Assembly (NCBI GenBank): GCA_963834385.1
Contig: CAWIBO010000003.1
Span: forward strand, 320,001 to 384,000
Direction of reading: 5' to 3'
From: an uncultured Verrucomicrobiae bacterium
Lineage (GTDB): Bacteria; Verrucomicrobiota; Verrucomicrobiia; Chthoniobacterales; UBA10450
Length of the DNA: 64,000 nucleotides
In this document: piece by piece, positions 27,852-57,472 of the stretch
Numbering within the stretch: position 1 is the stretch's first letter
Layout: every line of letters starts with the position of its first letter
Position numbers and translations under genes: made by a program
Notes under the pieces: model-generated
The model's input: only the letters and a program-made list of their open reading frames with translations
Databases searched by the model: none
Told to the model about the DNA's origin: nothing

Positions 27852-28610
27852 ATGAGATTCCTAGGACTTTATATAACGCTCTTGGTGATCGGTGTTGGTT
27901 CAGTTCGCGCACAAACCGTTTACCCAGGAAACGGTGGGGCTGGGTTCGGAGGAGCAATTGGCGGGGGATCGCTTTCTTTGTCAGACGATGGTACCACCTT
28001 GGTCGGGACACTTACCCGTGGCTCGGGGGGATTTAATGACGGATTCGTCATTTACGTCGATTCGATTGCGGGTGGCGCCACCTCTACAAGCGGTTACACC
28101 GATACTGCTGATGGCCTTAGATCTGCCATTTCTGGTCTCAATGGCGCGGACCGCGCAATTCTTAACTTCCCAACTTCGTTCGCTCCCGATTTCGCCATCG
28201 CAATGTCTCCTGCCCAAAACTTCGGAGGCCTGTGGAGCTTGTCGAATCCGGCTGATTTCCCCTTCGTGAGCGCAATCAGTTTCGCGCCCCCCAGCGATTC
28301 CACGGCGGGAAGCTACAGTTTTAGCATTAGCCTCACTGACCTAGGCCTTACGGCAAACAGTGGTCAAAGCTTCGATTTTGTCTCCACCTATGTGAGTTTT
28401 ACGGCCTACCGTTCGAATGAGAGTATCGCCACCACTTTGACAGGGACTTTTGCATCCGGAGACCCTAACAACAACTTCGGCAGGAACGACGTAACAGCCG
28501 GAAACTTCGCTACTTACACGATTATTCCGGAGCCTTCGACGGTCTCCCTGCTGGCTTTGGCGGGCGGGTTGGCCCTCTTCCGGGTGGCCCGGGCCCGAAA
28601 AAAGGCCTAA
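27852..28610 (+). CDS. PEP-CTERM surface protein 1
   Basis: Signal peptide; IPEPS + TM + RVARARKKA tail; beta-rich body. Confidence 0.9.
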   Translation: MRFLGLYITLLVIGVGSVRAQTVYPGNGGAGFGGAIGGGSLSLSDDGTTLVGTLTRGSGGFNDGFVIYVDSIAGGATSTSGYTDTADGLRSAISGLNGADRAILNFPTSFAPDFAIAMSPAQNFGGLWSLSNPADFPFVSAISFAPPSDSTAGSYSFSISLTDLGLTANSGQSFDFVSTYVSFTAYRSNESIATTLTGTFASGDPNNNFGRNDVTAGNFATYTIIPEPSTVSLLALAGGLALFRVARARKKA

Positions 28611-28667
28611 AAAGGCCCGAAAAGGGTTGACCGCCCCCCGCCCCGTAGGGCAGAACAGGGGTCCCCT

Positions 28668-29268
28668 ATGAGCAAGAAACTTCTGCCAGTAATTATTGCA
28701 GTTCTCGCGTTTGCTGTTCCGAAGGCAACTTTCGCTTCTGCTGAGTTCTTCGGCAACGCGTTCGTCGTGCTGAATCTAAACGCCGGCGGCAACGTCTTTT
28801 ACGATCTCAACCCGAGCACGCAAACCTTGAACCCGAATTTCGGCGGGGAGGACCTTGGGACCTTTGATACTTCCGCGGGCGATTCACTTCTCCTCAACGG
28901 CGCGGAGTTCAATACCTTCACGACCAGTGCGACACGGTGAACACGGTCTCGTTGAATTACCGGGTTTTTATCCTGGGCAATCCGTCCTTTAGCGGCTTTG
29001 ACGTCACCTTCGTTTCACCAGCGGCAACAACCAGTTCTGGCAGTCGACCGACAAGAACATCAACGTCCTGAGCGGCCTGACCCCGGGCACCTACATGTTT
29101 GAAGTGTTCGGCAGCGCCGACACCACTGCCGGTTCGCGCTTCTACAGCAACAACGGGAACAATTACACCGCCACCTTCACCGTGGTGCCGGAGCCCTCCA
29201 GCCTGGCGCTGCTCGGTGGATCGTCCATTCTGGGGGCCTGGTTCTTCGCCCGGCGCCGGCGGAGCTAG
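28668..29268 (+). CDS. PEP-CTERM surface protein 2 (frameshifted)
   Basis: Signal peptide MSKKLLPVIIAVLAF; stitched end NYTATFTVVPEPSSLALLGGSSILGAWFFARRRRS*. Confidence 0.85.
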
Positions 29269-29350
29269 GATTACGGAAATTATTGGAATTGACGAACTCA
29301 CATAAATTGACGAGAATAAGGGAGCGTTAATATCAGGAAAAAAGGGAATT

Positions 29351-29993
29351 ATGAAAAAATCTTGCTGTCATTGGCCGCTGCGGTCCTTCTGGCGCCGCTG
29401 TCATTCGCCGACACGGGATCTTCGGATCTTTCGTTGTTATCAATGTCGAACGGCGGGGGGAACATCTTTTACGATCTCAGTTCCGCCACGATGAACCCAG
29501 ACTTCCAAGGGCCGTTCCTCGGCAGCTTTCGATCCGAGCAGCGGAGACACCCTGATCTTGAACGGCGGCGAGGTGCAGACTTTAAAAACGGAGGTACCGG
29601 GACAGGAACCGGCAACACCATTACCGGCGCCTTTACCGACTACAACGGTCACCTCAGCATCAACCCCACGGGAACCTTCACTGGGATCGCTTGCCGTTTA
29701 ATTCCAAGTTTCGCTTCCTTCGGGACGAACGGGCGACCAAAAATGGCAGCTGCATCGTCGGGACGCAACGTCCTGGCGGGACTCGACCCGGGGACCTACA
29801 GCTTCGAGGTGTTCTCGACGGCGAACTATAGTCCGAGTGGCGGTGCTCCAGCGGCACCCACTTCGCCAACAACGGCGGCGCCAACTACACGGCGACCTTC
29901 ACCGTGATCCCCGAGCCCTCCAGCTTCGCTCTCCTGGGCGGGCCCGCCCTGCTCGGCGCCTACTTCTTCGCCCGGCGTCGCCGGCAGAAGTAA
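29351..29993 (+). CDS. PEP-CTERM surface protein 3 (frameshifted), paralogue of protein 2
   Basis: NGGGNIFYDL...NPDFQG...LG, NVLAGLDPGTYSFEVF and NYTATFTVIPEPSSFALLGGPALLGAYFFARRRRQK*. Confidence 0.85.
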
Positions 29994-30016
29994 GCGGCCC
30001 ACCACCTTCCATTCTC

Positions 30017-30044: not shown

Positions 30045-30069
30045 GTGCCCGGAAAGCCCGAAGAAAAGT

Positions 30070-30455: not shown

Positions 30456-30613
30456 TTGCTCCCCTCATCTGGAAAGGGGCGGCGGAGGGTCTGAAAAAGC
30501 CGCGTTTTTTTGGAAAAATCATAGGCGACTTTCTCTCGAAAAAAGGTAATGTCAGCGACTCGTTCGTTGCCTGCCAGGGTATGGGCGGCAGTCGGCGCGT
30601 TTCCCCCCTCTTA

Positions 30614-33600
30614 ATGAACAGTTTACGACGCCGCGCGGCGGCCTGTTTCGTCATGGCCGCGGCGTGCCTTCTCCCCGCCACGATCCGGGGCGAAGCGATG
30701 CTCCAGTATTTCAATACCGACTGGAACGAGATCGCCGCGAAAATGCCGGAGCTGGCGGAGGCCGGTTACACCTCGCTCTGGCTGCCGCCGCCGACCAAGG
30801 GCAGCGGCGGACTCTCCGTCGGCTACGATCTCTGGGACCGGTTCGACCTCGGGAGCAAGGACCAGCGCGGCACGGTGCGGACGCGCTACGGCACCGAGGC
30901 CGAGCTGCAGCGGATGGTCGAGATCGCGCACCGCTTCGGCATCCGCGTCTATTTCGACAACATCATGAATCATAACGCGTTCGATATCCCCGGATACGAC
31001 GCGAACACGCCGATCGACATTTATCCCGGGTTCGTGCCGGAGGATTTTCATCTGCGCCTGACGGAGGACGGCTCTTACCGGAAATGGGATAACACGCGGA
31101 ACTGGGGCGACGCCTGGCAGGTGCTGAATCTCGGCCTGGCCGACCTGATCGACATCGCCCAGGAACCGGGCGCGACCAACCTGAACTTCGGCGCCAGCGA
31201 GGGCTCGACCTTCCCCAAGATCAAGTTCGTCCGGCACCCGAACAACCCGGAGTATTACTGTTTCCTCCCCAACGGCACCTATGTCGGGTTCGGCCCGAAC
31301 AACGGCATCACGGCCGCGATGCTCGCGGCCAACAGCGCCTTTTACTCCGAACGGGTCGAGGACATGCTCAACCGCTCGGCCCGCTGGCTGATGGACCGCA
31401 CGACCGCCGATGGCCTGCGCCTCGACGCGGTGAAACATGTGCGCGCCGATTTCTTCGGAGCGACTCGGGGCGGACAAGGACACGAGCGATTACGGCTATC
31501 TCGGGCAGGCGCAGCGGCAGTTCAATCTCACGCGCGGTTTCAGCGACCCGAACCATCGCGACTCGCTTTTCGACACGGAGAACGGGCGCGATGACGCGCT
31601 GATGTTCGGCGAGCATCTGGGCGAACCGCCGGGCTACGGCGAATACATCGAACGCCGGCATGCGGCTGGTGGACAATCCGCTCCGCCAGCAGTTCAACGA
31701 CCGGCTGGGCAATCCCTCCATCGACCTGAACGGCTTCGACCAGCCGGGCGCGGGCGGCTTCGCGCCCGACCTCGGGGTGATGCATGCGCAGAGCCACGAC
31801 AACGACTACGCCGCGCGCCGCGAGCTCCAGCACGCCTTTTACTTCACCCGCGCCGGCATCGGCCTGCTTTACACCGACGGCAATAATCAGGCCGAAACGC
31901 TCGGGGAAAGCGGCGGCGCCTTCCCGCGCCACGCCAACACGAATTTCCTCGGCCAATACGGCGACGGCCGCATCCCGAACCTGCTCTACATCCACAACCA
32001 GTTCGCCCGCGGATACTCAGGTGGGGCGATATGCCGATTCTGATTACGTGGCCTACGAGCGGATCGACAAGCGCGAGAATCTCGGCATGACCGACGCCGA
32101 CGGCGTCACCATGCTTTTCATGCTGAACGACAACTACGCCAATGGGCAGGCGCGCTCGATCAGACGAGCCTTTCCGGCCACCGCTTGCGCCAACAACTTC
32201 CCGGACATTGGGAACGCCTATCTCTACAACTACTCGACCTACGGCGGCGGCTTCTACAAGTACGCCTCGGAACTGAGCACGGTGGTCGTGCCGCCCGGCG
32301 GCTACTTTGCCTTCTCCTGGAAAAACCCCGATCCCTCGGATCTCTGGCAGAACGCCGGCGGCAAGCCGGTCACGATCCTGCAAAATGGCCAGCCGGTCGG
32401 GACGATGAGCTACGAGCGCAAGGATGGGCGCGATGGCGACAAGGGATTCAACCCGTACGGCGTCCCGGACGCGAACACGACCGATCTGAAATACACCTAC
32501 ACCGTGCCGCGCGTGACGGACGGGACGAACCTCAGCTTCTTTGCGCGCACGGATGCCTCGGCCGAAAACATCCTGCTGAACCTGGATGGCGGCATCGACC
32601 TCAACGGCGGCGCAGGCAACAGCGACCCTGGGTTGCGCGATCATCCTCCCGGCGTCACGACGGATGTTTTCATGGGCTACGAGCAGACGCTGTATGTCGA
32701 CCGGCAGGGCCCGGAAAAGTTCGCCGCCATCAACACGGCGCGCTGCACCTTCGGCTCGGCCGGGGCGGAGACCTACACCGGCGGCGCGCCGACGGTCGAA
32801 CGGCTCGGGAGCAAACCCGCAGAACGCCGATGCGGCCGCTTTTGTTTACCACGACCCGACGGCCGGGTTCGAAGGCTGGGCCGGGCCGCATCCGGCCACG
32901 CAGTTTGTGGACAACGGTTCCACCGTCGAGATCTGGGCCAAGACCAACTCCGTCGGGGGCGGCTACCGGATGTTTGTCTATTACACGACGCGACGGCAGC
33001 AACCCGGAGGGCGCGGGCGGCGTCGGCACTCGGCACGACGCAGACGGCGGAGATGCGTTACCAGGCGCCGAACACGGCCGCGGCGCGACAACTGGTGGAT
33101 CGAACAGCCACCCTGACCAAACCGGCCGGCACGTTCAAATACAAGATCGGCGTCTTCAAAGACCGGCCTGAACAGTCTCTTCCCGGTCGGTGCGGATGAG
33201 GTGGCCCGCAAAAAGATCGGCATGACGATTTTCAAGATCGACGAATTTCAACGCCACCACGAAGGCGTTCTTCCCGCACAACGATTACGTCGAAGAACGC
33301 GCAGGGACAACCTCATGCGCACCGGGCTGGCGGAGGGCTTTCATGTCCTGCGCGCGCGCGCTTTTCTCAACGCGCTCGGGCAAGGCGTCGATCTACAACA
33401 CTTTTACGCAGACCTTTTACTACGACGCCCAGCGGCCGCAGGGGAGATCAAGTTCCCCGCGACGAACGGCGAAGCGTCACCGGCCAGACCTACGGCGTGG
33501 TCGTCCGGACCGATCAGAGCGTGACCGAGACGTGGTATCACATCGACGACAGCGACCCGACCAATGACGACGTCGTCACCCGCGTGGCCAATGGCAACGG

Positions 33601-36600
33601 CGTCGGCTTCGAGCCGTTCACCGATGCGAACAGCAACGGCGATGCGCGAACCACGGAGGCCTTCACCGACCTGAATGGCAACGGGACCTGGGACGACAAC
33701 GTCCCCGCCTGGGTGAAGGTGAGCGAGGTCACGCCGAGCGCCGCGATCAGCAGCGCGTTCCCGCGCGAATGGCGCTTCAATTATCGCAACATCCCCGCGG
33801 GCGGCAGGGCAGGCACGATCCAGGTGCGCCTGCGTGAGCTTTCGTCGTCGCCCACTTTCTTCACCGGAGCAACGTCGACGTCAGCGACGCTGTCGGGCAT
33901 TTCACCACGCTGACCCGCACGGTCACCACCACCGGCGATCCGCAACCGTCTCTTTATCGCCTTCCCGCGCGCGGATGGGCAGACCGTCGGCCCGGGCTAC
34001 GTCATGAAGGTGCGCTTCAGCGACGTCCTCGGGAACGGCGTGGACGACGAAACTTTGAAGAGCCGGTTCGTGGTCAAGATCGCCAGCAGCGAGTCCGGCT
34101 CCGTGGCCAACGCGGTCACGCAGGGCACCTCGACCTACCAGATCATCCGCAACGCCGACCCCGGTTATCACGATCTCGCCTTTACCCTCCCGGCGCTTTA
34201 CAACGGCGTCCCCGATTTTCTTCACACGATCCAGGCCACGATGACGCGCCCGGGCAACTCCGCCCTGGTGGCGACGCGCCAGGTCCAGGCCGAGCCGACG
34301 CAGCAGGGCAGCTTCGTCAACATCACCAAGCCGCCCGAGTTCGACTCGGACGGGAAACGCTTCGAGATCGTCCTGCCGGACAAGCCGATGCCGCTGCCGT
34401 CCGAGCGGCAGACCGTGATCACGGTCGAGACCAGCACGGACATCGAGACCGTCTCGATCAGTTTTGCCAACAACGCCGCCACCGCCTCCCTCATCGCGGA
34501 AGTGGAAACCGAGCTGCGGCACCCGGTCTCGGTCACCAATGGCAGCACCACCGTGGCGGGTCTGGAGAAAATGCTGACCGGCACCGTCTCGACCACGATG
34601 GACAGTTCGACCGTGACCGGCAGCGGCACGCTCTTCACCACCGAGGTGGAGGTCGGCGACCTCATCCGGATCGGGTCGCAGGATTTTATTGTCATCACCG
34701 TCAACTCGAACACCCAGCTCACCACGGTGGAGACGGCGGACGCCGGCGGTTCCGGACTCTCCCTCTTCCTGCGCTCGCATTTCGACCAGGAGCTCTCAGT
34801 CGGGAACACGGTCAAGATCGGCGGCACGACGTACAAGGTGGCGGTGGTAAACGATTCCGACACGGTCACGCTCGAGATCCCCTACGCCGGCTCGACCACG
34901 GCCAGCCTCCCGGCCTTCCGGGTGGACCCGAACCCGATCAGCACCGGCAGCCGGAAACTCTGGAAGTTCCTCTGGTCGAACATGACGCCCGGTTCCTTTA
35001 CCTTCACCGCGCTGGCCCATCCTTCCTCGGGCCCGGATGTCAGCGCCACCCGCAACACGCTGGTGGTGCTGCGCCAGGTGGTCACGGGCGACGAGAACGA
35101 CGCCGACGATGACAACGACGGCCTCAGCGACGTGAACGAGACCACGCCGACGGCCCTGCCCGCGACCAACCCGGAGAGCTGGAGCAACGGGCAGGTCCAT
35201 GTTTACTACGCCTACGGTCATTCCAACCCGCTCAGCCCCGACACCGACGGCGACGGTCTGCCGGACGGCCTTGAAGTGGGGTGGCGCACCGCGGCCAACC
35301 CGCCGACGGATCCGGCGGCGGACACCAACGGCGACGGCTCGCCCAATTTCATCGGCGACCTTGATCCGCCGTTCTTCAATACGCTCGATAACTTCGGGAA
35401 CGTCCCGGATGTCGACAGCCAGAGCCAGGGAGGCGACCGGGCCAAACAGGTGGCCGGGAGCGCGACCAATCCGAACGATCCGGACACCGATCACGATGGC
35501 ATTCCGGACGGTCTGGAAGACGCCAACCGCAACGGCTGGACCGATGGGGACGGCGCTTCGCTGGCCACGACCACGGCACCCAGCCTCGGTCGCAACTGGC
35601 CCAATGGCGTCATGGACCCGGGCGAAACCTGGCTCGAGACAAGCCCGCTCGATCCCGATTCCGACAAGGATGGCCTGAGCGACGGCTACGGCGAGGACGT
35701 TGACCTGAACGGGAAGATCGCGGGCGACACGGACAACGACCGCGTTTACGACGGCGGCGAAACCTGGAGCGAGACCAACCCGCTCAAGGCCGACACTGAT
35801 GGCGACGGCCTGCCCGACGGCTGGGAAGTCCGGTACGGGCTCGATCCGCTCGACAATGGCACCCTGAACATGCGCACCGGCGGCGCCGGCAATCCGGACA
35901 ACGGCGCCAGCGGCAACCCCGACGGCGACGACTTCGAAACCTGCGAAGAACTGGTCAACGGCACCGACCCAACCACGCCGAACACGATCGTGCCGCCGCC
36001 GCCGGGCATCGATCGTGATCGGCCCGCACACGCCGGTCGTGGTCGGCGGGGTGACCAACGCGCAGCGAGTTCACCGATTGGAGCGCTGGACGACCTGATC
36101 GTGCTCGACGAATACGACGGCGCCGGCGCGAACAACCAGGGGGCCGACGTCTATCACGGCGACGACGGCTTCGATTCGTCGCGCGACCTCGTCGCGTTCT
36201 ACGCGCACGACGGCGGCGACCCGGACGCTGGGCGGCGACGGCAATTTCTATTTCCGCGTCGATCTCCAGCGACCTCGCCCGCCTACGCGGAGGAGGGCAA
36301 CCTCGACATTTATGTGGTGGTCGATTCGGGCAACCCGGCCATCGGCGAATACGCCCTGCCGGACGACGTGGACACGGGCACGACCATGCGCTGGGAGGCC
36401 GTGGTGGCGGGCTATTCGTCAACAACGGGCGCGTCTATGTCGATACGAACAACGCCTCGAACTCCACCGCCATCGGCCAGGCGCTGCGCCGGCTTCGGGT
36501 CGTGCAGCGCGCGACCAGAATACGCCGGATGGATTCAAGAAAGGCGTACTACAGCTCCGACCTCGACTCGGTGGAATTTTCCATCAGCCGCAAGGCGCTG

Positions 36601-42400: not shown

Positions 42401-43270
42401 GATACCGACAGCAATGGCGTGAATGATTACGGAATCAAGACGGGACGGACCTATAACGTTCGCAACATCGCCGCCTACGAGGGGATCGACGGAACTCGTC
42501 GGGAAGTCTGTCTTTGGGGCGGGGGCCGCAGCGGCGCGGACATTCTGACCAACGGGGTCTTTGTCTCCATGAACAAGGTTCCCACCATGTCCACCAGCAT
42601 GAATCCCGCCGATCCCGCCTGGAACCAGCGCCCCTACGAAGCGCAGTATCTCAAGGTTTTCGACGTGACCGCTCCGCCTAATGCCCCGGGCGCGCTCAAT
42701 CCGGGCAACGCCTATAGCTACACCATCGGGAGCACGCTGAACCTGACCTGGACCCCCGCCGCGCCCGACTCCGAGGGCCTGCAGCCGCGTTACAAGGTGA
42801 ACTATGTTTTCAGCGGCCAACCGGCCAACTTCTTTTATAGCAACGACCCGTCGGCGACCTTTGGCAGCGCGCCCGGCAGCACCATCCAGGTTTGGGTCCA
42901 GTCGGTGAACCCGAATGACAACAGCGTCGTCGGCGCCTCCACCGCGACCTTCCAGTTCACCTTCCTCGACGGGAACAGTGACAATGACGGGGATGGCATG
43001 AGTAACGCCCGGGAGGACGTCGCCGGCACCAATCCATTCGACCAGCAGTCGGTCTTTGCCATCGCCAGTGTCGCCCGGCCCGATCCTTCCACTTTCTCGG
43101 TTTCGTGGACGAGCGTGCCTGGGCGCCGCTATCAGGTGGAAGGCGCCACCACGCCGGGCGGCACCTACATGAGCATCGGTGGCGTCATCACGGCCGATGC
43201 CACCATGGAAACGCTGGCCTTCGCGCCCACCGGCGGACAGCAGTTCTTCCGGGTCAGGATCGTCCCGTGA
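39406..43270 (+). CDS. Secreted multidomain GH13 enzyme (~1,290 aa); frameshift at about 41735
   Basis: ATGA coupling to the previous gene; WFQPIHP, GSPYSVRNFF, DAPFNH, GLRADFG, AESLD and SHDEE; C-terminal DNDGDG...FFRVRI. Confidence 0.85.
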
Positions 43271-46435: not shown

Positions 46436-47326
46436 GTGTCCGACCGCACCAAGCTTCGCTTTTTTATCTCGCTCATGCTGACGCCGGCGGCGCTCGTCAT
46501 CATCGCGGTGGTGGCGTTCCCGTTCCTCTTCAACGTCATCCTCTCCTTCTCGAACGCGAACATCTACCATGTGCGCGACTGGCGGCTGATCGGCTTCGAC
46601 CAGTATGTGTCGGTGTTCCGCCAGGGCCTTTTTTGGAGCATTCTCCTGAAGACCGTCGTCTGGACGCTGGTAAACATCGTCTTTCACGTCGGGATCGGCG
46701 TTTTTCTCGCGGTCATCCTTCACCAGCGGTTCATCCGGGCCAAACCCATCTGGCGGGTGCTTCTCATCCTTCCCTGGGCGCTTCCGCAATACATCACCGC
46801 GCTCACCTGGCGCGGGATGTTCAATTACGAATACGGCGCGGTGAATCTTCTCATCACGAAGTATCTGCAGATGCCGGCGGTGGAATGGCTCACCTCGCCT
46901 TTCGAGGCTTTTCTGGCCGTGATCATCACCAACATCTGGCTCGGCTTTCCGTTCATGATGGTGATCGCCCTCGGCGGATTGCAGTCGATCCCGGAGGATC
47001 TCTACGAGGCGGCCGACGTCGATGGCGCCTCCAAGTGGTTCCAGTTCTGGAACATCACCGCGCCCCTGCTCCGGCCGGTCATGATCCCCGCCATCACCCT
47101 TGGTGTCATCTGGACCTTCAACAACATCAACGTGGTCTGGCTTGTCTCGAACATGGGCGAGCCGGCCGATTCGACCCATATTCTTGTCTCCTACGTCTAC
47201 AAGGCGGCGTTTAACATGTATCGCTTCGGCTGGGCTGCTGCGCTCTCCGTGGTCATTTTCGCCATTCTCTTCACCTTCTCGCAGGTCTTCCTGCGGAAAA
47301 CGCGGGCGGCGGAGGCGGTTTACTAA
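46436..47326 (+). CDS. Sugar ABC permease (MalF-like)
   Basis: LILPWALP, WLGFPFMM, EAA motif LYEAADVDGA and FNNINV. Confidence 0.9.
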   Translation: MSDRTKLRFFISLMLTPAALVIIAVVAFPFLFNVILSFSNANIYHVRDWRLIGFDQYVSVFRQGLFWSILLKTVVWTLVNIVFHVGIGVFLAVILHQRFIRAKPIWRVLLILPWALPQYITALTWRGMFNYEYGAVNLLITKYLQMPAVEWLTSPFEAFLAVIITNIWLGFPFMMVIALGGLQSIPEDLYEAADVDGASKWFQFWNITAPLLRPVMIPAITLGVIWTFNNINVVWLVSNMGEPADSTHILVSYVYKAAFNMYRFGWAAALSVVIFAILFTFSQVFLRKTRAAEAVY

Positions 47327-49704
47327 GGGCTGGCCTTGTCGCCGGCTTTCTCCGCGCGGACGTAAAAGGCCGCGCTCCGGGCCGGAAGCTTCAGCTCGGT
47401 CCGGCCGTTGGTCACCCGGAGGCTCCCCGGACCAAGAAGGTTGACGTATTCGCCGTCGGCGAGTTCGGGCGCAACTTCAAGGCCTTCTGCAGCGGGCTGG
47501 CGGAGCGATTGAAAGCGCAAAGAAGACGGTCATCCAGCCAGGCGCGCACGAAAACGAGTTCGTCCGCCCCGGCCAGGAGAGTGCGCCGGCTGCCGTAGCG
47601 CAAGGCCGGATGGGCCGCCCGGGCCTTCGCCGCCTTGCGAAAATGTTCCAGGACCTCGCGCTCGGTCGCGGTGACCTCCTCCCCAAAGCGCATGGGACGA
47701 CGATTATCGGGATCGCCCGCGCCGGTCATCCCGAATTCGTCGCCGTAATAGATCATGGGCGCGCCGTCGATCGAAAGGAGGAACGCCTGGGCCAGCTTGA
47801 GCCGGTCGTAGCGCGCCGGATCGTCCACGGTCGGAGGAGAATGCCAACCCACTTCTTCCTCCTTCACTCCCTCGACCGGCAGGTCGCCGTCGGCGTAGGC
47901 CATGAAACGCCCCTTGTCGTGGTTGCCGACCAGCGGCGACATCAACGCCTGCTTGCCATATTGCCGTTCCGAGGAGGTCAGGCTTTCCTCGAGCTGGGAG
48001 AGAGTGCTCCGGTTTTCCGCCAGCGTTTCCCGGATCGAATCATAGAGCGGGAAATCGAACTGGCCGTCGAGCATGTTTGGTCCGACGAAGGATGCGATTC
48101 CTGCCCGGCCGAGGAAAGTTTCGCCCACGAGATAAAAATCCGGTTTCGCCTTTAGGCGGGACCGGAGCGCTTCCCGGAACTTCCACCAGAACTCGTGGGG
48201 GATGTGCTTTACCGCATCGAGGCGGAAGCCATCGAGGTCGTACTGCACCGCCCACCAGATGGCGTTGTCGATCAAAGCCTGCACGGCCGGGTCACGCTCG
48301 AAATCAAAGGTGGGCAGGTACAGGCTCAAACCAGGTGGTGAACTGGTGTTTATCCCAGAGCCGGAGATTCTTGGTGCCGTCGGGCAGCTCGAGCTGGCCG
48401 AACCAGTCGCGATGCTTCTGCCACCAGGGATGCTCGATGTGCACATGATGGAGGACGAGGTCGGCGATGATCTTCATCCCCTCCTGATGCGCCGTTTGCA
48501 CAAGGGAACGGAGGGCGGCCTCGTCCCCGAAATGGGGCTCGACCCGCGTGGGCGAAACCGGCCAATAGCCATGATATCCCGTATACCAGCGGTGGGGCTC
48601 GGGATATTCCTGGTAGGCTTTGTCCGGGTTCTGGTTCAAAGGGGCAATCCAAAGGGTATTGATGCCGAGCTCACGGAAGTAGCCTTCCCGGATCTTCTGC
48701 TCGATTCCTTTCCAGTCGCCCCCATGAAAGTTGGCCGGCGGCTTCACTTCCGGATGTTGGACGGGAGCGTTGTTCTCCTGATTCCCGTCGTGGAAGCGGT
48801 CCGTCAGCGCATAGTAGATGATCGCGTCCTGCCAGCGAAACACCGAAGGGGCCAGGGGGACCCGCACGACATTGGTGATGCCGCCTTCGCGGTCGATTGC
48901 GATCGCCCGAACCCAGCTCCCGGCGGGAAGACTGGGAAGATTCACCGTCAGGATGCGTTTATCAATTTTGGCTGGAAGGGGACGGGCGGAGCCGTCGGGC
49001 AACTCCGCCACGACGGAAGCGGCCTTGAGGTCGCCTTCTGAGGAGCAGCGCAAGCGGATCTGCTTGGAAGAGAAGGCTTCGGCAAAGATGGCGCCGGGAC
49101 GCTCCACCGCCGCGACGTCGGCAATGGAATTCGTTCCTTCGTAGCCGTCCGGCTCGCGGCGCGGATTCGCCGGGTCCGGCTGCCAGGCGCCGTCGACCAC
49201 GAACTTGTAACGGTGACTTCCTGGCGGCAGGGGCAGCGCGAGAAAGAAAGAACCGTCGTCGCGCCGATTTAACGGGTGGGATTCCCGGTTCCAGGCGTTG
49301 AAAGAGCCTGCCACGGTGACCGACTGCACGGTTTTCGGCGCGCGATAGACAAACTCATGTCGGGCCGGTTGCCGCACCGCCACCGTGATCACACTGCGCA
49401 AAGACTTGGCGCCATGCCCGACGGTTATCGGAAGATCAATCAGGCCGGCGGCGTCGTGGGCCACGGTCAGGCGCAGCCTGCCCTGCGCCCGGTCGAGTGC
49501 CGACTGCAATTGCGGATGCTCGCCAACCTCGATGCGCGAATCCGGCAGCGGCTGATGGAAGCGGCGGAGATCGAGGAGGACGCTTCCGCCCGGCTCGACG
49601 AATTGCACCGGGATCGGGCCGAGGAAAAGCGACGGCGGCGCGGCGCAGACCGCGGCGGTCAGCGCAAGAAAGAGAAGGGGAAATCTAAGGCTGAACGGTT
49701 TCAA
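47323..49704 (-). CDS. Secreted GH13 alpha-amylase with a CBM48-like module; frameshifts at about 48320 and 47495
   Basis: VAGSFNAWN...YKFVVDG.W..DP; TDRFHDG, GYHGYW, GFRLDAVKH, GET and NHD; TTG49704 start inferred. Confidence 0.85.
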
Positions 49705-52226
49705 TCTCGAAAAAGAAGGGCGTGAGCGGGGCCAGGGGTGGGAGACCAAGGGTAATGGGCTGGTCGCCCGCAGAAAGAGGAGCCTTGATCTCGATGTTTC
49801 CAGCCAGCTTTTCCCGCAGGACGAGCCTGCCCGGAGCCGCCGGCCAGCGCGAGAAAGCGCAGCGCCTCGGCCGGCAAAAGAAGAGAGACATCACTCATCT
49901 CGCGGCGGGGATGAAGATTGATCACGCCCAGGAAGCGCTGGTTGGTCGCGGGATCGTGCCGGAGAAAGGCGTAGAGCCAATGTCCGCCCGCTGTCTCACC
50001 CGGGCCGCGGCCAAACTGCGGGTTCTCGTTGTTGGCCGCGTTCAGCGGGAAGAAATCGCCGTCGCGGAAGGCCGGTTCGTTCATCAGCCGGAGAAGGCGC
50101 CCGTAAAAGTCGCGCAGCTCGCGCTGATCATCGAGCATACCGCCGCCGTCGTATTTGCCCCCGTTGACCCAGTTCAGGAAGGCCGGCATCGACCAGTAAT
50201 CAAAGATCGAGGTGCGGGCATCGTCGCCGCCGAACCCTTCCGCGCCATCGGCCGGTTCGCCGACCTCCTGGCCGTGATAAAGCATGATCGGCCCCCGCCC
50301 GATGCCGTAGAGGAGGGCGGAGACCGGGCGACCCACCTCCGGGCCGATTTTGCCCCATTGGTCTTTTGCGGCCAGGCGCACCTCGTCGTGGTTTTCGGCG
50401 TAACGCAGGGAATTTTCGAAGATGAACGGGTTGCTGCGCGCGGCTTCGACGTCGTTGGCCCAGCCTGATCCATCGTAGATGTTCTTGACCGCCTTGTAGG
50501 AAGGATCGTCGTAAACCGCATCAAAGCCGGCGTTGAGAAGGTCAAACATCACATTGGATTTGCCCCCATTCAGACCCGAGATGACCGGGTCGCTTCCCGG
50601 GACCTTGGCCGGGTCGTTATCGTAGGCTTCGGCCACGAAAAAAACGTCCGGGTTGCGTCGGCGCGCCTTCCCGATGGCCCAGGTCCAGAATTCCGGGGGC
50701 ACCATGTGCGCCATGTCGCACCGGAAACCGTCGACCCCGAGCGCCTGCCAGTGCGCCAGGACAGCATCCATTTTCAGCCAGGTATCGGGCACGGGTTTGT
50801 CGGGCGTGAGCGCGTTTGGATATTCGCGGACCGATTTGCCGGAAGCGGTGAAATCGAATCCGTAGTTCAACTTGATCGTCTCATACCAGTCGCCCAGCGC
50901 CGGTTGCCAGCTGACGACATTGTTGCCAGTGACACGCCCAAACTCCTTCTCCGTCGGAAACAAGCCGTCACAGGCGTCGCCCAGGGCGAGGCAGGTGGGA
51001 CTGACCGCCTGGCCCTCCTTGACCGTGGGGAGCCGGAGAGGCGGACCTTCCGGGCCGGGCTTGAGATAAAAGAAATTGTTCAGCGGATCGAAGAATACAT
51101 CCTTCCGGTCGCCCGAGCCGCCATGTGATTGCCTGCCGAAATCGAACTCCGGTTTCACACTCGAGGCGTAGCTGCGGGCGACATGGTTGGGGACAAAATC
51201 GATCAGCGCCTTCATTTGCCGGGCGTGAATGCGTTGCAACAGCGCCTTGAACTCATCCAGTCGCTTTGCGGGATCGCGCGCATAATCTGGACTGACGTCA
51301 AAGTAATCCCGGATGGCATAGGGACTTCCCGCAATCCCCTTGAGCAGGTCGACATCATCCGCCGGTTCGCCCACGGCGGCGTAGTCCGTTCCGGTCGCCT
51401 GCTGGAGCACGCCGGTCAGCCAGAGATGGGTGAAACCCATTTCGCGCAGGGAAGTGAGCGCGGCTTCATTAAGGTCGGCGAATCGGCCGGAACCGTTCTC
51501 AGCCAGGGTGCCGTTCTGTTTCCGCGTCGTCTTGGTGTTACCGAAGAGGCGAACAAGGAGCTGGTAGATCCGGACACGCTCGCCGCCGGCACCCAGCCGG
51601 CTGCGGGGAGCGGAGACCACCTGCTTCGGCTTGGTCAGATCAAGCTCGTGATAATGCGCGATGAACTGGTCGCCCGCGCCGCCGCGCGCAGAGGGATCGC
51701 TGGCGCCATAGAGCCGGCCCCATTCGCCGCCGGAAAAATCCTTCGAGTAAACGACCAGCCGGATCTTCCCGGGCTTGCCGAGGTCGTCCAGGGCGAAGCT
51801 GATCTTCAGCTCCGTATCTTCCCAGAGAATCGGCAGCTCCTCCGAGGTGTCGATGCGGTCGCTCCATTTTTGTTTCTCCCAGACGCGCTTCCAGTCCTCG
51901 GACTTCTCCTTGCCGCTGCGCAGGACAAAAAGATGATCAGCGCGGAAGGGAAGAAAGACGGTGGATCCCTCCTCTCCGGGTGCGAAGGGAAGAACGGCGG
52001 AACCTCCCTCCGGGGTGGTCTGCAGGGCGATAAACACGGTGCGATCGGAGCCGGGCGCGGTCGTTCCCTGCGCGCGATAGTGCAGGGTGAGTTCGTTGCC
52101 TTCCCTGGTGACGAGGATGCGGGCGCCATCGGCCCCGACAAGAGTCGTTCCCTTCTCCTCGGCGCCTGCGAGCGGTAGAGCGGAAAACAAAAGACAAATG
52201 GCGGCCAGGAGCGGGCGAAGAGGCAT
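49685..52226 (-). CDS. Secreted GH13 enzyme (resembles GH13_38 alpha-glucosidases) with an extra N-terminal domain; frameshift at about 49850
   Basis: Signal peptide MPLRPLLAAICLL; IYQLLVRLFGN, GSPYAIRDY, DFVPNH, GFRCDMAH, AEAY and ENHDE. Confidence 0.85.
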
Positions 52227-52240
52227 CACGCGTGGCTGCT

Positions 52241-53605
52241 TCAAGCAATCGGGCTCTCGGGCGAGGTGGCGGTCGGCAGCATCCCTTCCTCTTCGGCCGC
52301 CTTCTGCAGGGGTTGCTGGGCGAGCGGCTTGTCGCGAATGAAGAGGGTAAGGAAGGCGGCCACGAGCAGGCAACAGCCGCCGAGGACCACGGCGGTCAGC
52401 CGGTTGACGGCGGGGAAATGTTCCATGACCCGGCTGATGACGATGGCGACGATGATCTGGGGAATGACGATGAAGAAATTGAAGATGCCCATGTAAACCC
52501 CCATGCGATCGGGCGGGAGCGCGCTCGAAAGCATGGCGTAAGGCATGGAAAGGATGGAGGCCCAGGCAATGCCGACGCCGACAAAGGCGGTCAGCAGCAT
52601 CCAGGGCTCGCGCAGGATGCCGACGCTGGCGAGGCCGAGTCCGCCGAGCAGAAGGGAGAAGAAATGAATCCACTTTGCGCTGGCGTGGCGGCCGAGCCAG
52701 AGGAAGACCATCGCGGCGATGAAAGCGACGAAGTTATACTGGGCGAAACAATCGCGCGCGAGGTTAAGGCCCTGCTCGTAGAGAGGCGAACCGGGGTCTG
52801 TCGCGCCCATGATGTTGCGGGCGACGGCCACGGTGAAAAAGATCCACATGCAAAAGAGGCCCATCCAGGTGAAAAACTGGACGGCGGCGAGTTGCTTCAT
52901 GCGGGCGGGCATTTCGCGGAACGCGACCCAGATTTCGCCGAACCCCTCGGCTTGTTTTGCGTTTGAGCGCTTCCATGTCCTCGGGCGGATATTCGCGGGT
53001 GCGTGAAGACCGTCCAGAGCACCGCCACGAGGAAGACGACCGCGCCGACGGTGAAGGCAATGACCACGGTCTCGGGGATGCGCTGCGCGGCGCTGGTCTG
53101 GATGCTGACGCCGGAATCCTGCAGCCAGCCGGGCAGCTTGGAGGCGATGACCGCGCCGGCGCCGATGAAGACCGACTGCATGGCGTAGCCGACGGTGCGT
53201 TGTTCCTCCGGGAGAAGGTCGGCCACGAAGGCGCGGAATGGTTCCATGCTGACATTGACCGAGGCGTCGAGAATCCAGAGCAGGCCGGCGGCCATCCAGA
53301 GGACGCCGCTGTGCGGCATGGCGAGCAGTGCGAGCGAGGAAAGGATGGCGCCGACGAGAAAGTAAGGACGGCGGCGGCCCAGCGCGTCCCCAGGTGCGGT
53401 CGCTCATATGGCCGACGATCGGTTGCACGATCAGGCCGGTGAGCGGCGCGGCCAGCCAGAGGAGCGGGAGCTGGCTTTCGTTGGCGCCGAGGTATTCGTA
53501 GATGGCGGACATGTTCCCCATCTGGAGGCCCCAGCCGAACTGGATGCCGAAGAACCCGAAGCTCATGTTCCAGATCTGCCAGAAGGAAAGCCGGGGGCGA
53601 TTCAT
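52241..53605 (-). CDS. MFS maltose/sucrose-type sugar transporter (frameshifted)
   Basis: WQIWNMSFGFFGIQFG, LAAPLTGLIVQP, MEPFRAFVAD, AWASILSMPY and GVYMGIFNFFIVIPQI. Confidence 0.9.
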   Translation of the reverse strand: MNRPRLSFWQIWNMSFGFFGIQFGWGLQMGNMSAIYEYLGANESQLPLLWLAAPLTGLIVQPIVGHMSDRTWGRAGPPPSLLSRRRHPFLARTARHAAQRRPLDGRRPALDSRRLGQCQHGTIPRLRGRPSPGGTTHRRLRHAVGLHRRRRGHRLQAARLAAGFRRQHPDQRRAAHPRDRGHCLHRRRGRLPRGGALDGLHAPANIRPRTWKRSNAKQAEGFGEIWVAFREMPARMKQLAAVQFFTWMGLFCMWIFFTVAVARNIMGATDPGSPLYEQGLNLARDCFAQYNFVAFIAAMVFLWLGRHASAKWIHFFSLLLGGLGLASVGILREPWMLLTAFVGVGIAWASILSMPYAMLSSALPPDRMGVYMGIFNFFIVIPQIIVAIVISRVMEHFPAVNRLTAVVLGGCCLLVAAFLTLFIRDKPLAQQPLQKAAEEEGMLPTATSPESPIA

Positions 53606-53684: not shown

Positions 53685-54030
53685 CGCTGTAGCGGCGCTG
53701 TCCTCAGCGCATCCCGGTGTCGGAGGCGTGCACCCAGGCTCGACAGAGTCTCGCCCTACCGGGGGGCGTGGGAAGCGTGAATGGTGAATGGTGGATGGTG
53801 AATCGTGAATCGTGTGTGGGGCTGGCCTTCTTCGGTAGGGCGACGCTCCGCGGAGCCTGGGAGCACGCGCCGCCAGCGCACCGGCCAAACGGAGGGACGA
53901 GCTTCCGCTCGTCCATGGACCTGCGGAAGCAGGTCCCTCCGTAAGAGAAAATCAGCCTGTCTCCGTGCCCTCTGTGATCTCTGTGGTGAGTCTGCACCCA
54001 GGCTCGACGGAGTCTCGCCCTACCGGGGGG
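53685..54030. repeat. Stack of several REP-like and short-tandem repeat families
   Basis: GGCTCGACRGAGTCTCGCCCTACC twice plus an inverted partner; GTGAATS heptamers; GGAGGGAC...GTCCCTCC palindrome; CTCTGTG motif. Confidence 0.85.
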
Positions 54031-54812
54031 CAGATGGGGACGATGTTTTCCTGGGTTTCGCGGCTGATTTGGAAGCCGTTGAAATAGACATCGTTCTTTT
54101 CGCTGTTCCGGTTGAAAAGCGCCATGCTTTCGATGTTGCCGGTGCCGGCGAGTCTGCGCCCGTTGAGTTTGGTCAGCTTTTTATCCCGCACTGTCTGAAT
54201 CTCGAGATCGTAGGTGTCCGTGCCGGTCAGGGTCACGGTCACGATCACCCCATCGTCCGAGACCGGCACTCCGCTGTCGTGGTTCGTGTCGCCATCGTGG
54301 ACCTGATAATTCGGCTGGCCCTGGTAATGGCCAAATTCAAAACGCGCCCCGGCGTTGTAGTCGCTGACCGCGGCATTGGCCTGGCCGCTGCGCAAAACCA
54401 GACCGGCCGAGCCACCCTCCGAGGTGTCTTTTTCCGATTTCTTTTCAAAGGCTCCCGTCTCCATGAGAAAGGAAAAGGATTCGCCGGGGGCGAGCGGCTG
54501 CGCGAACGGACGAAAAGCGATGGCCTGTTCGAAGCCGTCGCCATTGGCAAAAAGTCCAAAGGCTTTGTTCTCCTTGAGGATGCCGGTGACGTCCCTGTTC
54601 GTCTCCGGGTTGGCGAGGAAGAACCCGGCGAAACGGTTGTCGCCGGCAGCGTCGGTCAGGAGCGTCCAGGCGCCGAAACCGCTCCCACCGTTTTTGCCGG
54701 TCTCCCACACGGAGCCATAGGCGGAATGACTGGCGTCGTCCTCGGCGAGGTTGACCCGTTCGGCGTGGATGACGGCGGTGAGGGTGAGCAGGAGAACGAG
54801 GAAAGTGCGCAT
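53952..54812 (-). CDS. Secreted beta-sandwich-like hypothetical protein; 3' end uncertain
   Basis: Start MRTFLVLLLTLTAVIHA; NGGSGFGAW...DVYFN body; the frame runs on into the repeat stack. Confidence 0.75.
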   Translation of the reverse strand: MRTFLVLLLTLTAVIHAERVNLAEDDASHSAYGSVWETGKNGGSGFGAWTLLTDAAGDNRFAGFFLANPETNRDVTGILKENKAFGLFANGDGFEQAIAFRPFAQPLAPGESFSFLMETGAFEKKSEKDTSEGGSAGLVLRSGQANAAVSDYNAGARFEFGHYQGQPNYQVHDGDTNHDSGVPVSDDGVIVTVTLTGTDTYDLEIQTVRDKKLTKLNGRRLAGTGNIESMALFNRNSEKNDVYFNGFQISRETQENIVPICPPVGRDSVEPGCRLTTEITEGTETG

Positions 54813-54856: not shown

Positions 54857-55702
54857 CTATCCCTTGACCGCGCCCGAGCTGAGGCCCGAGACAAGGAACC
54901 GGCTGAGGAGAAGGAAGAGCAGGACGACCGGGATGGAAACGAGGAGCGCGCCGGCGGCGTAGAGACCCCATTGCGTGCTCATGTTCGATTGGAACATCTT
55001 GAGCCCGAGCGGGAGGGTGAACATCTCGACATCCTGGAGGATGAGAGCGGCCACGACGTATTCGTTCCACGAGGTCATGAAGGAAAAGAGCGCGGTGATG
55101 ACGAGGGCGGGCGCGGCGAGCGGGAGCACGATGCGGTAGAACGACTGCCAGCGGGAACAGCCGTCGATGCCCGCAGCTTCCTCGAGGGAGAACGGAATGG
55201 TGTCGTAGTAACCCTTGAGCTGCCAGATGCAAAAGGGGAGCGCGGTCGCGGAGTAGATGACAATGACGCCGAGGTAGGAATTGATCAGGCCGAGTTTGAT
55301 CAGGATGAGGTAAAGGGGGAGCAACAGCATGGTGGCCGGGAACATCTGGGTCACGAGCAGGCCGTTGAGGGTGGTGGAGCGGCCGAGGAAACGGAACCGG
55401 GAAAGGGCGTAGCCGGCGGTGGAAGCGAGGGCGACGCCGGTGACCGTGACCGCGAGCGCGATCAGGGTGGAGTTGCCGAGCCAGCGGAGAAACGGGGTGT
55501 CGGTAAGGAGAACGCGAAAATTGGCAAGGGTGGCCCCGGCCGGGATGAGGGCGAGCGACGGGGAAAGGAGCTGGTCACCCGGGCGCAGGGCGATGGTGAC
55601 GATGCGCGAGATCGGGTAGAGCGCGAAAAGGACAAAAAGGAGCAGGGCGAAATAGCTCAGCCCGATCCGGAAGAGCTTGGCCGGCGACCTGTCGTTCTTC
55701 AC
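54857..55702 (-). CDS. Sugar ABC permease (MalG-like)
   Basis: YALSRFRF, QMFP, KGYYDTIP, EEAAGIDG, WNEY and GAVKG end. Confidence 0.92.
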   Translation of the reverse strand: MKNDRSPAKLFRIGLSYFALLLFVLFALYPISRIVTIALRPGDQLLSPSLALIPAGATLANFRVLLTDTPFLRWLGNSTLIALAVTVTGVALASTAGYALSRFRFLGRSTTLNGLLVTQMFPATMLLLPLYLILIKLGLINSYLGVIVIYSATALPFCIWQLKGYYDTIPFSLEEAAGIDGCSRWQSFYRIVLPLAAPALVITALFSFMTSWNEYVVAALILQDVEMFTLPLGLKMFQSNMSTQWGLYAAGALLVSIPVVLLFLLLSRFLVSGLSSGAVKG

Positions 55703-55726
55703 GCCGGGAAAGGCCCGACCGGGCGG

Positions 55727-56437
55727 CTACACTTTTTTCGAGCGGCGGCGCAGGAACGCCATCCCGGCCAGACCAAGGCCAACAAGGGCGTAGGTCGAGG
55801 GCTCGGGAATGAGGATCGTGGTGTTGAAGGCGGTATTAAAGGGTTGTGCAAAAGATTCGATGCTTTCCCATGCCAACGAGTCATCCAGGGACATGGTCAC
55901 GGTAGCCGGCACTACATCGGGGGTTTTCCAAAGCCATCCGTTGCTGGAGACGGTGTTATAATGAGTCGACGTTGCGATACTGGTCCCGTTGTAAAAACGT
56001 ATTGCGAGCGGGATGGAAGTCGATCCCGGCAGATTGTTTCCAGAGGTCATGCTCCCAGCGGTGAAAGTCAGGGAGAGGGCGAACGTCCCATCTCCAGCTC
56101 CATTTGCATTGAGATCACCGATAGAGATCTGCTGATAGGTTATCGTTGGGAAAGAACCCGATACTGTTTCTGTGTTTGCGCTTCCTTGACCGGCGATAGG
56201 CGTCCAAGTGCCAGTAAACCAGTTATCTGCGGTCGCCCCGCTGAAATAGCCGAGCTGAATAACTGCTCCATCACCGTCTGCGGTAGTTCCGCCTGTCAAC
56301 AGGGTTGTGTCCGACGTGTCCTGGTTGAACACCGTTTGGGATCCGGAATCAAAGCTCACGTTGGTCGACTGGCCATAAACGGCCGCAGAGCTCAAACAGA
56401 ACAGCGCAGTAAGGCAGAATCTCAACATTCGTTTCAT
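55727..56437 (-). CDS. PEP-CTERM surface protein 4
   Basis: Signal peptide; IPEPSTYAL + TM + RRRSKKV. Confidence 0.9.
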   Translation of the reverse strand: MKRMLRFCLTALFCLSSAAVYGQSTNVSFDSGSQTVFNQDTSDTTLLTGGTTADGDGAVIQLGYFSGATADNWFTGTWTPIAGQGSANTETVSGSFPTITYQQISIGDLNANGAGDGTFALSLTFTAGSMTSGNNLPGSTSIPLAIRFYNGTSIATSTHYNTVSSNGWLWKTPDVVPATVTMSLDDSLAWESIESFAQPFNTAFNTTILIPEPSTYALVGLGLAGMAFLRRRSKKV

Positions 56438-56441
56438 TAGG

Positions 56442-57472
56442 TTAAAGCGTATACGGCAGGGCCTGCGTCAGCGTGGATTGCGTTCCTGTCGCCGTGCTGC
56501 GCCGAACAACGAACATGGTGCCATTCGACGGGATGACGTCGGAATTGACGTTCGCGAGAGAGCCCGATTTTCGCCAGTTGGTCCCGTTGTAGTAGTAAAC
56601 TGAAAACGCAGAAGTGGCCGGATTCCAAATATAGACATTATCGGCCGAATTCGGACTCGTGCTGACCTGCCAATTCGGAAGGGTGTGGATGTTGGTCGCT
56701 AGGATGGTCGTTCCCGCCGGAAAGCGGTTCGAAATATACGTTGAACCAGGCCCGACGAGATCGGTGCGCTCTGTCGTGGTCGGGACTTTACCGACAAAAG
56801 TTAATTCGAGCGGACTGGTTTGGCGGCGGATGATGAAAAGACCGTCATCCGGATAAATAATCGTCCCATTCTGGTTCAAGAGAGAGCCCGATTTTCTCCA
56901 GGATGTGTTGTTGTGATAAAAGACGTCCCAGGCAGTGCCATTGAAGATATAAACATTATCCGCAGAGTTTGCGCTCGTTGCCTTGAAGAACGGATTTCCG
57001 GAGGGAAAGAGAGAGTTTAAGGTGTGGGCGGCAAAGATCTCAGCCGATTCACCCGTTGAAACTTGAAGTTCGGAGTTGGATCCCGGATTTCCGCTGACAA
57101 AAGTATAACCCGCCGTGTTTACGGTGAGAGTGTTGTCGTCATGACCTGTGATCAGAAAGAAGCGGCCCGTATTATTGCCGCTCGAAAATTTCACAAGATG
57201 TGGAGTATCCGAAAACTCGATTGAGCGGCGAAGGCTGCGTTCGAAAAAGTGAACGAAGTGGAATTGTCGAGGGACCCGACCGTGCCCTTATAAAGAGGGA
57301 TGGTGTAGAGAGGGGATGAGACAACATCACTGGTCGGGGATGTGGACGAGGTCGCTGCCGCAACAATCTTCGTTGTGAACCCGACCGGATCGGTGGTGAC
57401 GGACTGGGCGTTGAGCGAGCTAAGGACCGCGAAAGTTGCGAGGGCAAAGAGGGACGTTCGGAGGATGCGCAT
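56442..57472 (-). CDS. TIGR02597-like secreted protein; frameshift at about 57215
   Basis: Signal peptide then SVTTDPVGF; HTLNSLFP; duplicated ADNVYI...W...YY...WRKSG; FVGKVP. Confidence 0.75.

Follow-up and report, generated by a model that had tools for sequence, protein, structure and literature searches.

An alpha-glucan gene cluster of Verrucomicrobiota linked to PEP-CTERM genes and its predicted role in surface starch capture

Members of the Verrucomicrobiota are abundant degraders of polysaccharides. Of the many PEP-CTERM proteins, nearly all lack, to our knowledge, an assigned function. In the window, a 64,000-nucleotide stretch of DNA from an uncultured Verrucomicrobiae bacterium, four PEP-CTERM genes share 30 kb with amylase and sugar-transporter genes, which raises the question of whether such proteins serve starch or glycogen capture at the cell surface. 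The initial annotation proposed a distinct verrucomicrobial machine in which PEP-CTERM proteins and giant enzymes take the place of SusD/E/F/G. Our analysis supports a conserved verrucomicrobial starch/glycogen (alpha-glucan) gene cluster. We further predict, with a probability of roughly 0.58, that its five exported GH13 enzymes, transporters and PEP-CTERM proteins form a joint cell-surface system for capturing and digesting starch or glycogen. No description of the locus was found in the literature searched, and the system-level linkage of PEP-CTERM genes to an amylase locus is new.

Gene content of the locus

The locus contains five GH13 domains, one GH57-fold domain, malEFG, an MFS transporter and four PEP-CTERM genes, arranged in two convergent blocks whose ends meet at 47326/47412, in agreement with the junction proposed at about 47325:

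27852..28610, + strand: PEP-CTERM protein with domain family A, an unnamed beta domain (PEP-CTERM model; homologues)
28668..29268, + strand: PEP-CTERM protein with domain family B, an Ig-like sandwich, frameshifted (family models; structure model of a homologue)
29351..29993, + strand: second family-B PEP-CTERM protein, a tandem paralogue with several frameshifts (profile, regex)
30614..39409, + strand: G1, one gene for a giant exported protein (collinear with intact orthologues of 2,735-2,850 aa)
39406..43270, + strand: G2, exported divergent GH13 whose N-terminal domain is a homologue of family B, with TSP3 and an RFYR-type tail
43333..45190, + strand: GH13 lipoprotein of maltodextrin glucosidase/cyclomaltodextrinase type, one frameshift (family models)
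45187..46433, + strand: MalE-like solute-binding lipoprotein, start frameshifted, optional (family models)
46436..47326, + strand: MalF-like permease, optional (family model)
47412..49702, - strand: exported CBM48-GH13 (Pfam)
49760..52229, - strand: exported GH13 carrying a beta domain at its N terminus, 3' end approximate (Pfam)
52241..53605, - strand: MFS sugar transporter, GPH/sucrose-symporter-like, frameshifted (family models)
53952..54812, - strand: exported single-domain family-C protein without a PEP-CTERM tail (profile searches)
54857..55702, - strand: MalG-like permease, optional (family model)
55727..56437, - strand: PEP-CTERM protein paired with TIGR02597, not of family A, B or C (family model)
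56442..57472, - strand: TIGR02597 family protein, frameshifted, ending the region (family model)

In the translations, each of the five GH13s shows the full, intact set of four catalytic-region motifs: YFDNIMNH, DGLRLDAVKH, MFGEHLG and HAQSHDND in G1, LDAPFNH, DGLRADFGQG, FMAESLDG and NMSHDEE in G2, and an equally full set in the enzymes starting at 43333, 49702 and 52229. The Asp nucleophile, Glu acid and Asp stabiliser are present in what we take to be regions II-IV, assigned from the family motifs. Read by eye, signal-peptide-like N termini occur on 5/5 of these enzymes and lipoboxes on the 43333 enzyme and MalE, in line with the exported GH13 set as first described. In the window, Pfam detected all of them but G2, which it recognized weakly and in intact orthologues. 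The co-location of exported glycoside hydrolases for one substrate is a feature shared with Bacteroidota Sus-type polysaccharide utilization loci. The 43333 lipoprotein is present in 8/8 loci of the same family and the GH13 at 49760..52229 is core to them; the CBM48-GH13 was not seen in the seven other family loci, and in Puniceicoccaceae-like genomes it forms a single fusion protein with the GH13 that follows it.

G1 runs from a signal peptide through a GH13 alpha-amylase (closest solved structures 1mwo and 3bc9), a beta/Ig stalk, TSP3 repeats, the GH57-fold domain and further TSP3 to a C-terminal RFYR-type tail. Pfam gives the proposed GH57-like domain weak support (E 0.002), but its fold is clear: in an intact orthologue it was modelled (pLDDT 73) as a (beta/alpha)7 barrel plus a helical domain, matching GH57 enzymes by Foldseek at E 1e-13, with Z 27.6 and r.m.s.d. 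3.9 Å over 341 residues. It shares its fold and the invariant W-x-P-E nucleophile motif with Thermococcus litoralis 4-alpha-glucanotransferase (1k1w) and Aquifex aeolicus amylopullulanase (9jlr), whereas its identity to these is 12-14% and it is fused behind a GH13 in a single exported chain. The Glu nucleophile (CSR-3) is kept as W-x-[PA]-E-R in the window and 18 aligned orthologues. The usual acid/base Asp (CSR-4), at a position that we presume from the family motif rather than a residue-level superposition, is Ala in the window (FSAWEDF), mostly Asn in the orthologues and Asp in 3/18; the L015 orthologue bears Asp. This domain probably grips chains and does not cut them.

G1 has at least nine frame changes in the present assembly relative to intact orthologues, and G2 has one near 41733. 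The density in G1 exceeds that of 46 other genes, where 10 switches over 57 kb set a rough baseline, as might be seen if the locus were decaying into pseudogenes in this organism. Such decay is very improbable, given that the orthologues are intact, that unrelated genes are also frameshifted (7/46), and that short-read contigs of a close relative place indels at 28928, 29016, 31465, 32015 and 36011, several of the same break points. The frameshifts look like assembly errors.

By regex, 4/11 of the PEP-CTERM tails in the genome fall inside these 30 kb, where ~0.1 would be expected. Family models support the tails at 28524 (below the Pfam cut-off), 29185 and 55810, and the third, frameshifted tail (29907) was picked up by regex only. 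As in known PEP-CTERM proteins, a signal peptide precedes a C-terminal PEP motif, hydrophobic helix and basic tail, and the genome contains exosortases, at four loci. They differ in their N-terminal domains: no named PEP-CTERM subfamily model reached its cut-off on these, and the domains are linked to an amylase locus. A scan for promoters and terminators gave chance-level results. Since TIGR02597 also occurs in nine G1-negative genomes of the family, the right-hand pair is probably only a flanking neighbour and counting it among the locus parts is unsupported; of the four PEP-CTERM genes originally placed at the outer ends, the left-hand three thus remain.

PEP-CTERM domains and their linkage to amylases

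G1 occurs in 8/41 same-family genomes. All eight share the convergent layout, and in each the slot immediately upstream of G1 is taken by a PEP-CTERM gene of family A, B or C, with the families interchanging in this slot. Homologues of the family-A protein lie upstream of G1 in L039, G361, G274 and G387, and PEP-CTERM versions of C do so in relatives. The slot is occupied likewise in 5/6 G1-bearing genomes of a group inferred to be Puniceicoccaceae-like (f8), and in the sixth B and C adjoin a GH13 at a contig end. Profiles seeded from G1-linked genes found domain B in 20, domain A in 6 and domain C in 31 of 261 phylum genomes, and apart from one C match these lay inside the 35 G1-positive genomes; two genomes matching only a non-B part of the profile (G107 and G396) were left out of the counts. 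Such co-occurrence counts overstate the association because kin are not independent, and for the same reason Fisher tests carry no weight here. Where named G1 loci have 5 kb or more of upstream sequence, an A/B/C PEP gene is present in 9/58 and other PEP genes in 0/58; none of the A/B/C type was found near G1 in the other 49/58, in 13/14 other-family loci of the order or in 24/24 loci outside the class. In L016, the 10 kb upstream of G1 showed no PEP gene. In a B-seeded metagenome scan, GH13 adjoins 5/6 distinct PEP-B loci and 1/2 T9SS-B loci, and in a phage PEP-B is accompanied by a truncated amylase of G1 type. The neighbours of unlinked PEP-B/C genes were screened with our own query set, and beyond the class the majority of PEP-B genes lacked a nearby match to the alpha-glucan queries. 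In G361 the upstream neighbourhood of G1 also includes a repeat protein with a SusE/F-like look, for which searches yielded no more than E 0.15 to BT3088 and a weak CBM20 match.

Domain B is, by sequence profile, a distant homologue of the G2 N-terminal domain: a profile of stand-alone PEP-B proteins aligned with it at an HHalign probability of 91% (E 1e-6), compared with 0.1% for the control, C. This figure comes from PEP-only, non-fused sequences, whereas an earlier match of 97% was possibly circular. Searches found neither A nor C to be homologous to any domain within G1/G2, nor B to G1, and the G2 N-domain gave nothing meaningful against PDB and Pfam. The model of an intact B homologue (pLDDT 85.7) gave fold matches to CBM21 (Z 7.8, r.m.s.d. 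2.5 Å, 101 residues) and the CBM34/TVA I N-domain (Z 6.8), level with RhoGDI (Z 8.1); Foldseek returned nothing below E 0.001. Fusions of B to a G2-type or G1-type GH13 or to CBM20 account for 6/11 longer proteins, and A is fused to CBM20/CBM48 in 5/22. Both A and B are also found on dehydrogenase, peptidase, Kelch and Ig proteins. The weak Glucodextran_C match and the best ESM Atlas score (0.84) for A are leads only. Domain C matches unnamed clusters and DUF6645 in the ESM Atlas and is a generic module, with GH13 in just 1/46 long C-containing proteins scanned. Domain B is the best candidate glucan binder among the three, its binding being putative.

Transport and comparison with known systems

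The family models agree with the MalE/F/G-like and MFS assignments, and MFS is the transporter conserved in the locus. The malEFG genes are present in 3/8 G1-bearing family genomes and in 0/260 other genomes of the phylum sample (E 1e-25), which rules out MalE as a core part; of the co-occurrence put forward as a check, the link between the left-hand PEP-CTERM genes and G1 holds within the family (8/8), and that of mal does not. MalEFG match their families below the E. coli equivalog cut-offs and would pair with an ATPase encoded elsewhere: a MalK/UgpC-type ATPase above cut-off lies on another contig. Nothing in the locus stands in for SusC. None of the seven TonB receptors of the genome is in the locus, and the nearest (12875-14965), 13 kb off and best matched by siderophore/B12 models, has neither linkage nor family evidence as the importer. 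SusD (PF07980) was found in 0/261 phylum genomes, the host genome (89.6% complete) among them, while a control matched; LamB was likewise not found in the host genome at this completeness. Thus SusC/SusD and LamB/MalK are indeed missing from the locus and no SusC/D-like pair is conserved with it, but being SusC/D-free is the phylum norm, not a feature of the locus.

Like Bacteroides thetaiotaomicron Sus (SusA-G), the locus combines an exported alpha-amylase, extra GH13s, non-catalytic accessory proteins and a transporter; unlike Sus, it has no SusD or TonB-dependent receptor, it has PEP-CTERM proteins with unnamed domains as accessory proteins in place of SusE/F lipoproteins, and its amylases are 1,300-2,850 aa long with RFYR tails. 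The MalE/F/G-like parts with an ATPase in trans, and GH77 inside the locus of relatives, recall the enterobacterial maltose regulon (LamB, MalEFGK, MalS, MalQ), whereas here LamB is missing, malEFG is optional and split over both blocks, and the conserved transporter is MFS. The Ruminococcus bromii amylosome/X25 starch-adherence system likewise combines large modular amylases with non-catalytic proteins that are anchored separately, and L059 has a PEP-CTERM protein with X25, a starch-binding module, in the vicinity of G1/G2. The present host is diderm, however, and anchoring would use exosortase and the RFYR tail; cohesin and dockerin Pfam models had no match in the proteins scanned.

A predicted surface system and its alternatives

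In the predicted system, exosortase-processed A/B/C PEP-CTERM proteins would be displayed at the surface and fix the cell to alpha-glucan, like SusE/F in Bacteroides. Exported G1 and G2, whose catalytic motifs are in place, would be kept at the surface via their RFYR tails and cleave the polymer to maltodextrins. Products would pass the outer membrane by a route outside the locus, the three smaller GH13s may trim and debranch them in the periplasm, and the MFS transporter, joined in some strains by MalEFG with its ATPase from elsewhere, would import maltose or glucose. The small PEP-CTERM proteins behind which the giant amylases sit likely hold substrate at the cell surface, and they may replace SusD/E/F. 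The fuller proposal, in which exosortase-anchored proteins with new starch-binding domain families and RFYR-tailed giant amylases achieve SusE/F/G-like capture, is tentative, at slightly under even odds.

The cluster could instead be an ordinary set of secreted amylases and transporters, its PEP-CTERM proteins being co-regulated general adhesion, floc or envelope proteins blind to alpha-glucan. We consider this unlikely, though not negligibly so: C is mostly found on adhesin-like or other proteins of no known role, three unrelated domains fill one slot and most G1 loci lack a PEP gene, yet B shares ancestry with an accessory domain of an amylase, at the named loci the slot holds only PEP genes of A/B/C type, and a phage joins B to a G1-type amylase. 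PMC4960237 fits the adhesion view, tying PEP-CTERM proteins to exopolysaccharide systems and reporting variation with carbon source in Akkermansia. Less probable still is that the enzymes are released to the medium or periplasmic, with PEP linkage reflecting only shared ancestry of a chromosomal region. The role of the RFYR tail is putative, the locus encodes neither an outer-membrane transporter nor a secretion system, and the TIGR02597 pair, though unrelated, is likewise retained alongside by synteny at the family level; against shared ancestry, the linkage recurs in different orders with other flanking genes, and A, B and C swap within one slot in one family. As for a distinct verrucomicrobial machine, what holds is the conserved alpha-glucan locus, with its PEP linkage also in Puniceicoccaceae-like genomes and phage; as a general property of G1 loci it fails in 49/58.

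The surface-capture reading lends itself to experiment. Coraliomargarita algicola J2-16 encodes a G1, and the description of this strain records starch hydrolysis and maltose assimilation (PMC11165907). Thalassobacterium maritimum SDUM461003 also has a G1, and C. sinensis and C. akajimensis are starch-negative. The locus offers three PEP-CTERM domains that are small and expressible, together with a substrate that is cheap and predictable, and with a cultured, starch-positive G1 strain the functions of PEP-CTERM proteins and RFYR tails, and possible new CBM families, are therefore directly testable. If the prediction is true, PEP-CTERM proteins would gain a defined substrate-binding role, and the locus would show how a phylum lacking SusCD digests polysaccharide at its surface.

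Layout of the locus and its giant amylases

The window belongs to a host genome of 2.9 Mb that is 89.6% complete and, going by its best protein matches, probably falls in Chthoniobacterales. The parts that the initial annotation claimed for the locus are all present in sequence and family-model searches of the window, and its two convergent blocks are borne out, with a meeting point at 47326/47412.

Genes of the locus, in block order
27852, +, PEP-A, a PEP-CTERM protein carrying domain family A
28668, +, PEP-B, a PEP-CTERM protein carrying domain family B
29351, +, a second PEP-B
30614-39409, +, G1, a giant exported protein with GH13 and GH57-fold domains
39406-43270, +, G2, a divergent exported GH13
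then, +, a GH13 lipoprotein, malE and malF
opposite block, -, a TIGR02597 protein, PEP4 (a fourth PEP-CTERM protein, 55727-56437), malG, a family-C protein, MFS, GH13 and CBM48-GH13

The window's assembly is rich in indels, and alignment shows the reading of G1 to be collinear with intact orthologues of 2,735-2,850 aa over at least nine frame changes. The frame breaks in the locus are most likely assembly errors, since indels occur at several of the G1 and PEP break points in the short-read contigs of a close relative (one soil run), and 7 of 46 unrelated genes switch frame as well. A frameshifted gene for a large DUF5122 β-propeller protein lies at 803-3533. Imperfect direct and inverted repeats with ~80-bp units follow the third PEP gene, ahead of G1 (30065-30460), and by their 41 BLAST matches across the genome represent a dispersed REP-like element; a second dispersed palindromic family, with 82 matches genome-wide, separates the family-C gene from MFS (53726-54031).

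The closest solved structures to the GH13 domain of G1 are archaeal and Bacillus-type α-amylases. Structural comparison gives its rear domain a GH57 fold; the nucleophile motif is present, and an alanine occupies the position of the GH57 acid aspartate, which is kept in 3 of 18 aligned orthologues. That position, like the GH13 motifs of the locus enzymes, was assigned from the family motifs. An R/F-F/Y-Y/F-R/K (‘RFYR’) tail forms the C-terminus of both G1 and G2. G1 was found in 35/261 phylum, 23/131 order and 8/41 family genomes, and of 80 named loci, many of them truncated, 20 have G2 after it. In certain G1 variants (L021, L047), a single chain of 3,000-3,900 aa also contains a second GH13, of G2 type. 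In many relatives (for example, L015:8659-9690), a LacI-family regulator that is absent at the window's locus lies divergently to G1; in G054, a group II intron reverse transcriptase (L108:17217-18644) interrupts the stretch from the PEP genes to LacI.

Linkage of PEP-CTERM genes to G1

All eight G1-bearing family genomes share the layout G1-G2-GH13 facing GH13-MFS-family-C, and in all eight a PEP-CTERM gene of family A, B or C lies immediately upstream of G1.

PEP genes upstream of G1 in family genomes
Window genome: A+B+B
G361: A+C
G282: C
G377: C
G387: A+B
G391: B
G407: B
G399: C

Matches to domain B occur in 4/41 family genomes, all G1-positive, and C occurs in 10/41: the eight G1 genomes, G406, where a short contig holds malG-C-MFS, and the unpublished G388, on which this count alone rests. 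In f8, which appears to be a Puniceicoccaceae-like family, B or C PEP genes lie upstream of G1 in 5/6 G1 genomes, three f8 genomes having the common order MFS-GH77-GH13 fusion-C/B; in the sixth, B and C adjoin the same GH13 fusion at a contig end. The proposed PEP-CTERM association holds in the family and f8 but not generally: of 58 named G1 loci whose upstream flank is 5 kb or longer, a set partly overlapping these two and not independent of them, 9 have A/B/C PEP genes there, 49 lack them, and none has any other PEP gene. A/B/C PEP genes are also absent near G1 in 13/14 loci from the rest of the order, where flanks are sometimes short, and in 24/24 loci fetched from 26 G1 genomes outside the class, where PEP domains and G1 co-occur at genome level only.

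In the reverse test, scanning metagenomes with B as the seed yielded 10 loci; GH13 adjoins PEP-B in 5/6 distinct loci, where NCBIfam confirmed three of the GH13s and the other two were identified by eye, and it adjoins B as T9SS cargo in 1/2. One phage cassette includes a PEP-B gene.

Low-GC viral contigs (L228/L229:4558-11150; L230, L231) encode truncated G1-type amylases, two copies preceded by three PEP-CTERM genes (one of family B) and a pilin-like gene. Domain B is also T9SS cargo in Bacteroidota-type genomes (L237:7938-11472; P0121-P0146), once directly preceding an α-amylase, and domain A has T9SS forms too. In G361, the PEP genes are separated from G1 (L189:12394-15343) by an additional GH13 and a 503-aa repeat protein with a tentative likeness to the SusE/F-type binding domains of Bacteroidota; SusC/D are absent there.

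Identity of domains A, B and C

Domain B is predicted to be a 160-residue Ig-like sandwich; starch-related domains recur among the structures that match it best, tied with unrelated ones. The stand-alone PEP-B profile aligns with the N-terminal domain of long-form G2 at HHalign 91% (E 1e-6, 72 columns; control 0.1%), and 11 longer B proteins comprise four GH13s, two with CBM20 and five unrelated. A is fused to CBM20/48 in 5/22 longer proteins. C is a common, generic module (1,651 representatives), with one GH13 among 46 proteins scanned from the top 150. On these fusion, profile and structural results, B makes a fair candidate starch-binding module of a new kind, A is the weaker candidate, and the connection of C to α-glucan is by position only. 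That the locus encodes new PEP-CTERM-anchored starch-binding modules we put at slightly below even odds (about 0.45).

Transport and proposed mechanism

The locus was described as free of SusC/D and LamB. Neither SusD nor, in the host genome, LamB was found, but the lack of SusD is a phylum trait, as none of 261 genomes gave a match. The mal genes did not hold up as core parts: malEFG is present in 3/8 family loci, and of 12 other order genomes with a MalE orthologue (>50% identity), 10 are G1-positive, the gene lying mostly elsewhere in the genome. TIGR02597 and PEP4 look like a flanking pair, because 9 of the 16 family genomes (of 41) with TIGR02597 lack G1.

A MalK/UgpC-type ATPase is encoded in trans (G000:C1:135748-143507); its neighbours are a regulator, a GH13 that by eye is GlgE-like, and genes resembling ExbB/ExbD/TPR. 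ExbB/ExbD/TPR sets also lie next to the amylase loci of L016 and L170, and they might supply the energy for the outer-membrane step, for which no importer was identified.

The Sus, mal and amylosome systems served as points of comparison. Title-level searches, with subscription journals mostly outside their scope, found no paper on the locus, G1 or PEP-CTERM starch binding. In the literature compared, which included PMC3663571 and PMC3335022, PEP-CTERM proteins in Akkermansia are carbon-source dependent (PMC4960237), and a starch-growing verrucomicrobium has secreted GH13s (PMC13274419), with no 2,800-aa amylase among the supplement rows matching the terms searched. The phenotypic evidence is thin: Coraliomargarita algicola J2-16, whose G1 shares a 90% cluster with that of L016, is starch- and maltose-positive, and two congeners are not (PMC11165907).

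The analysis established gene content, catalytic motifs, two domain folds and synteny. In the mechanism we propose, PEP-CTERM A/B/C proteins would keep the cell attached to starch or glycogen, G1 and G2 at the surface would free maltodextrins, periplasmic GH13s would trim these, and MFS or MalEFG would import the products. The locus is a real, conserved and apparently undescribed α-glucan utilisation locus, which would work like a Sus-type surface system, yet is not a member of the Sus type.
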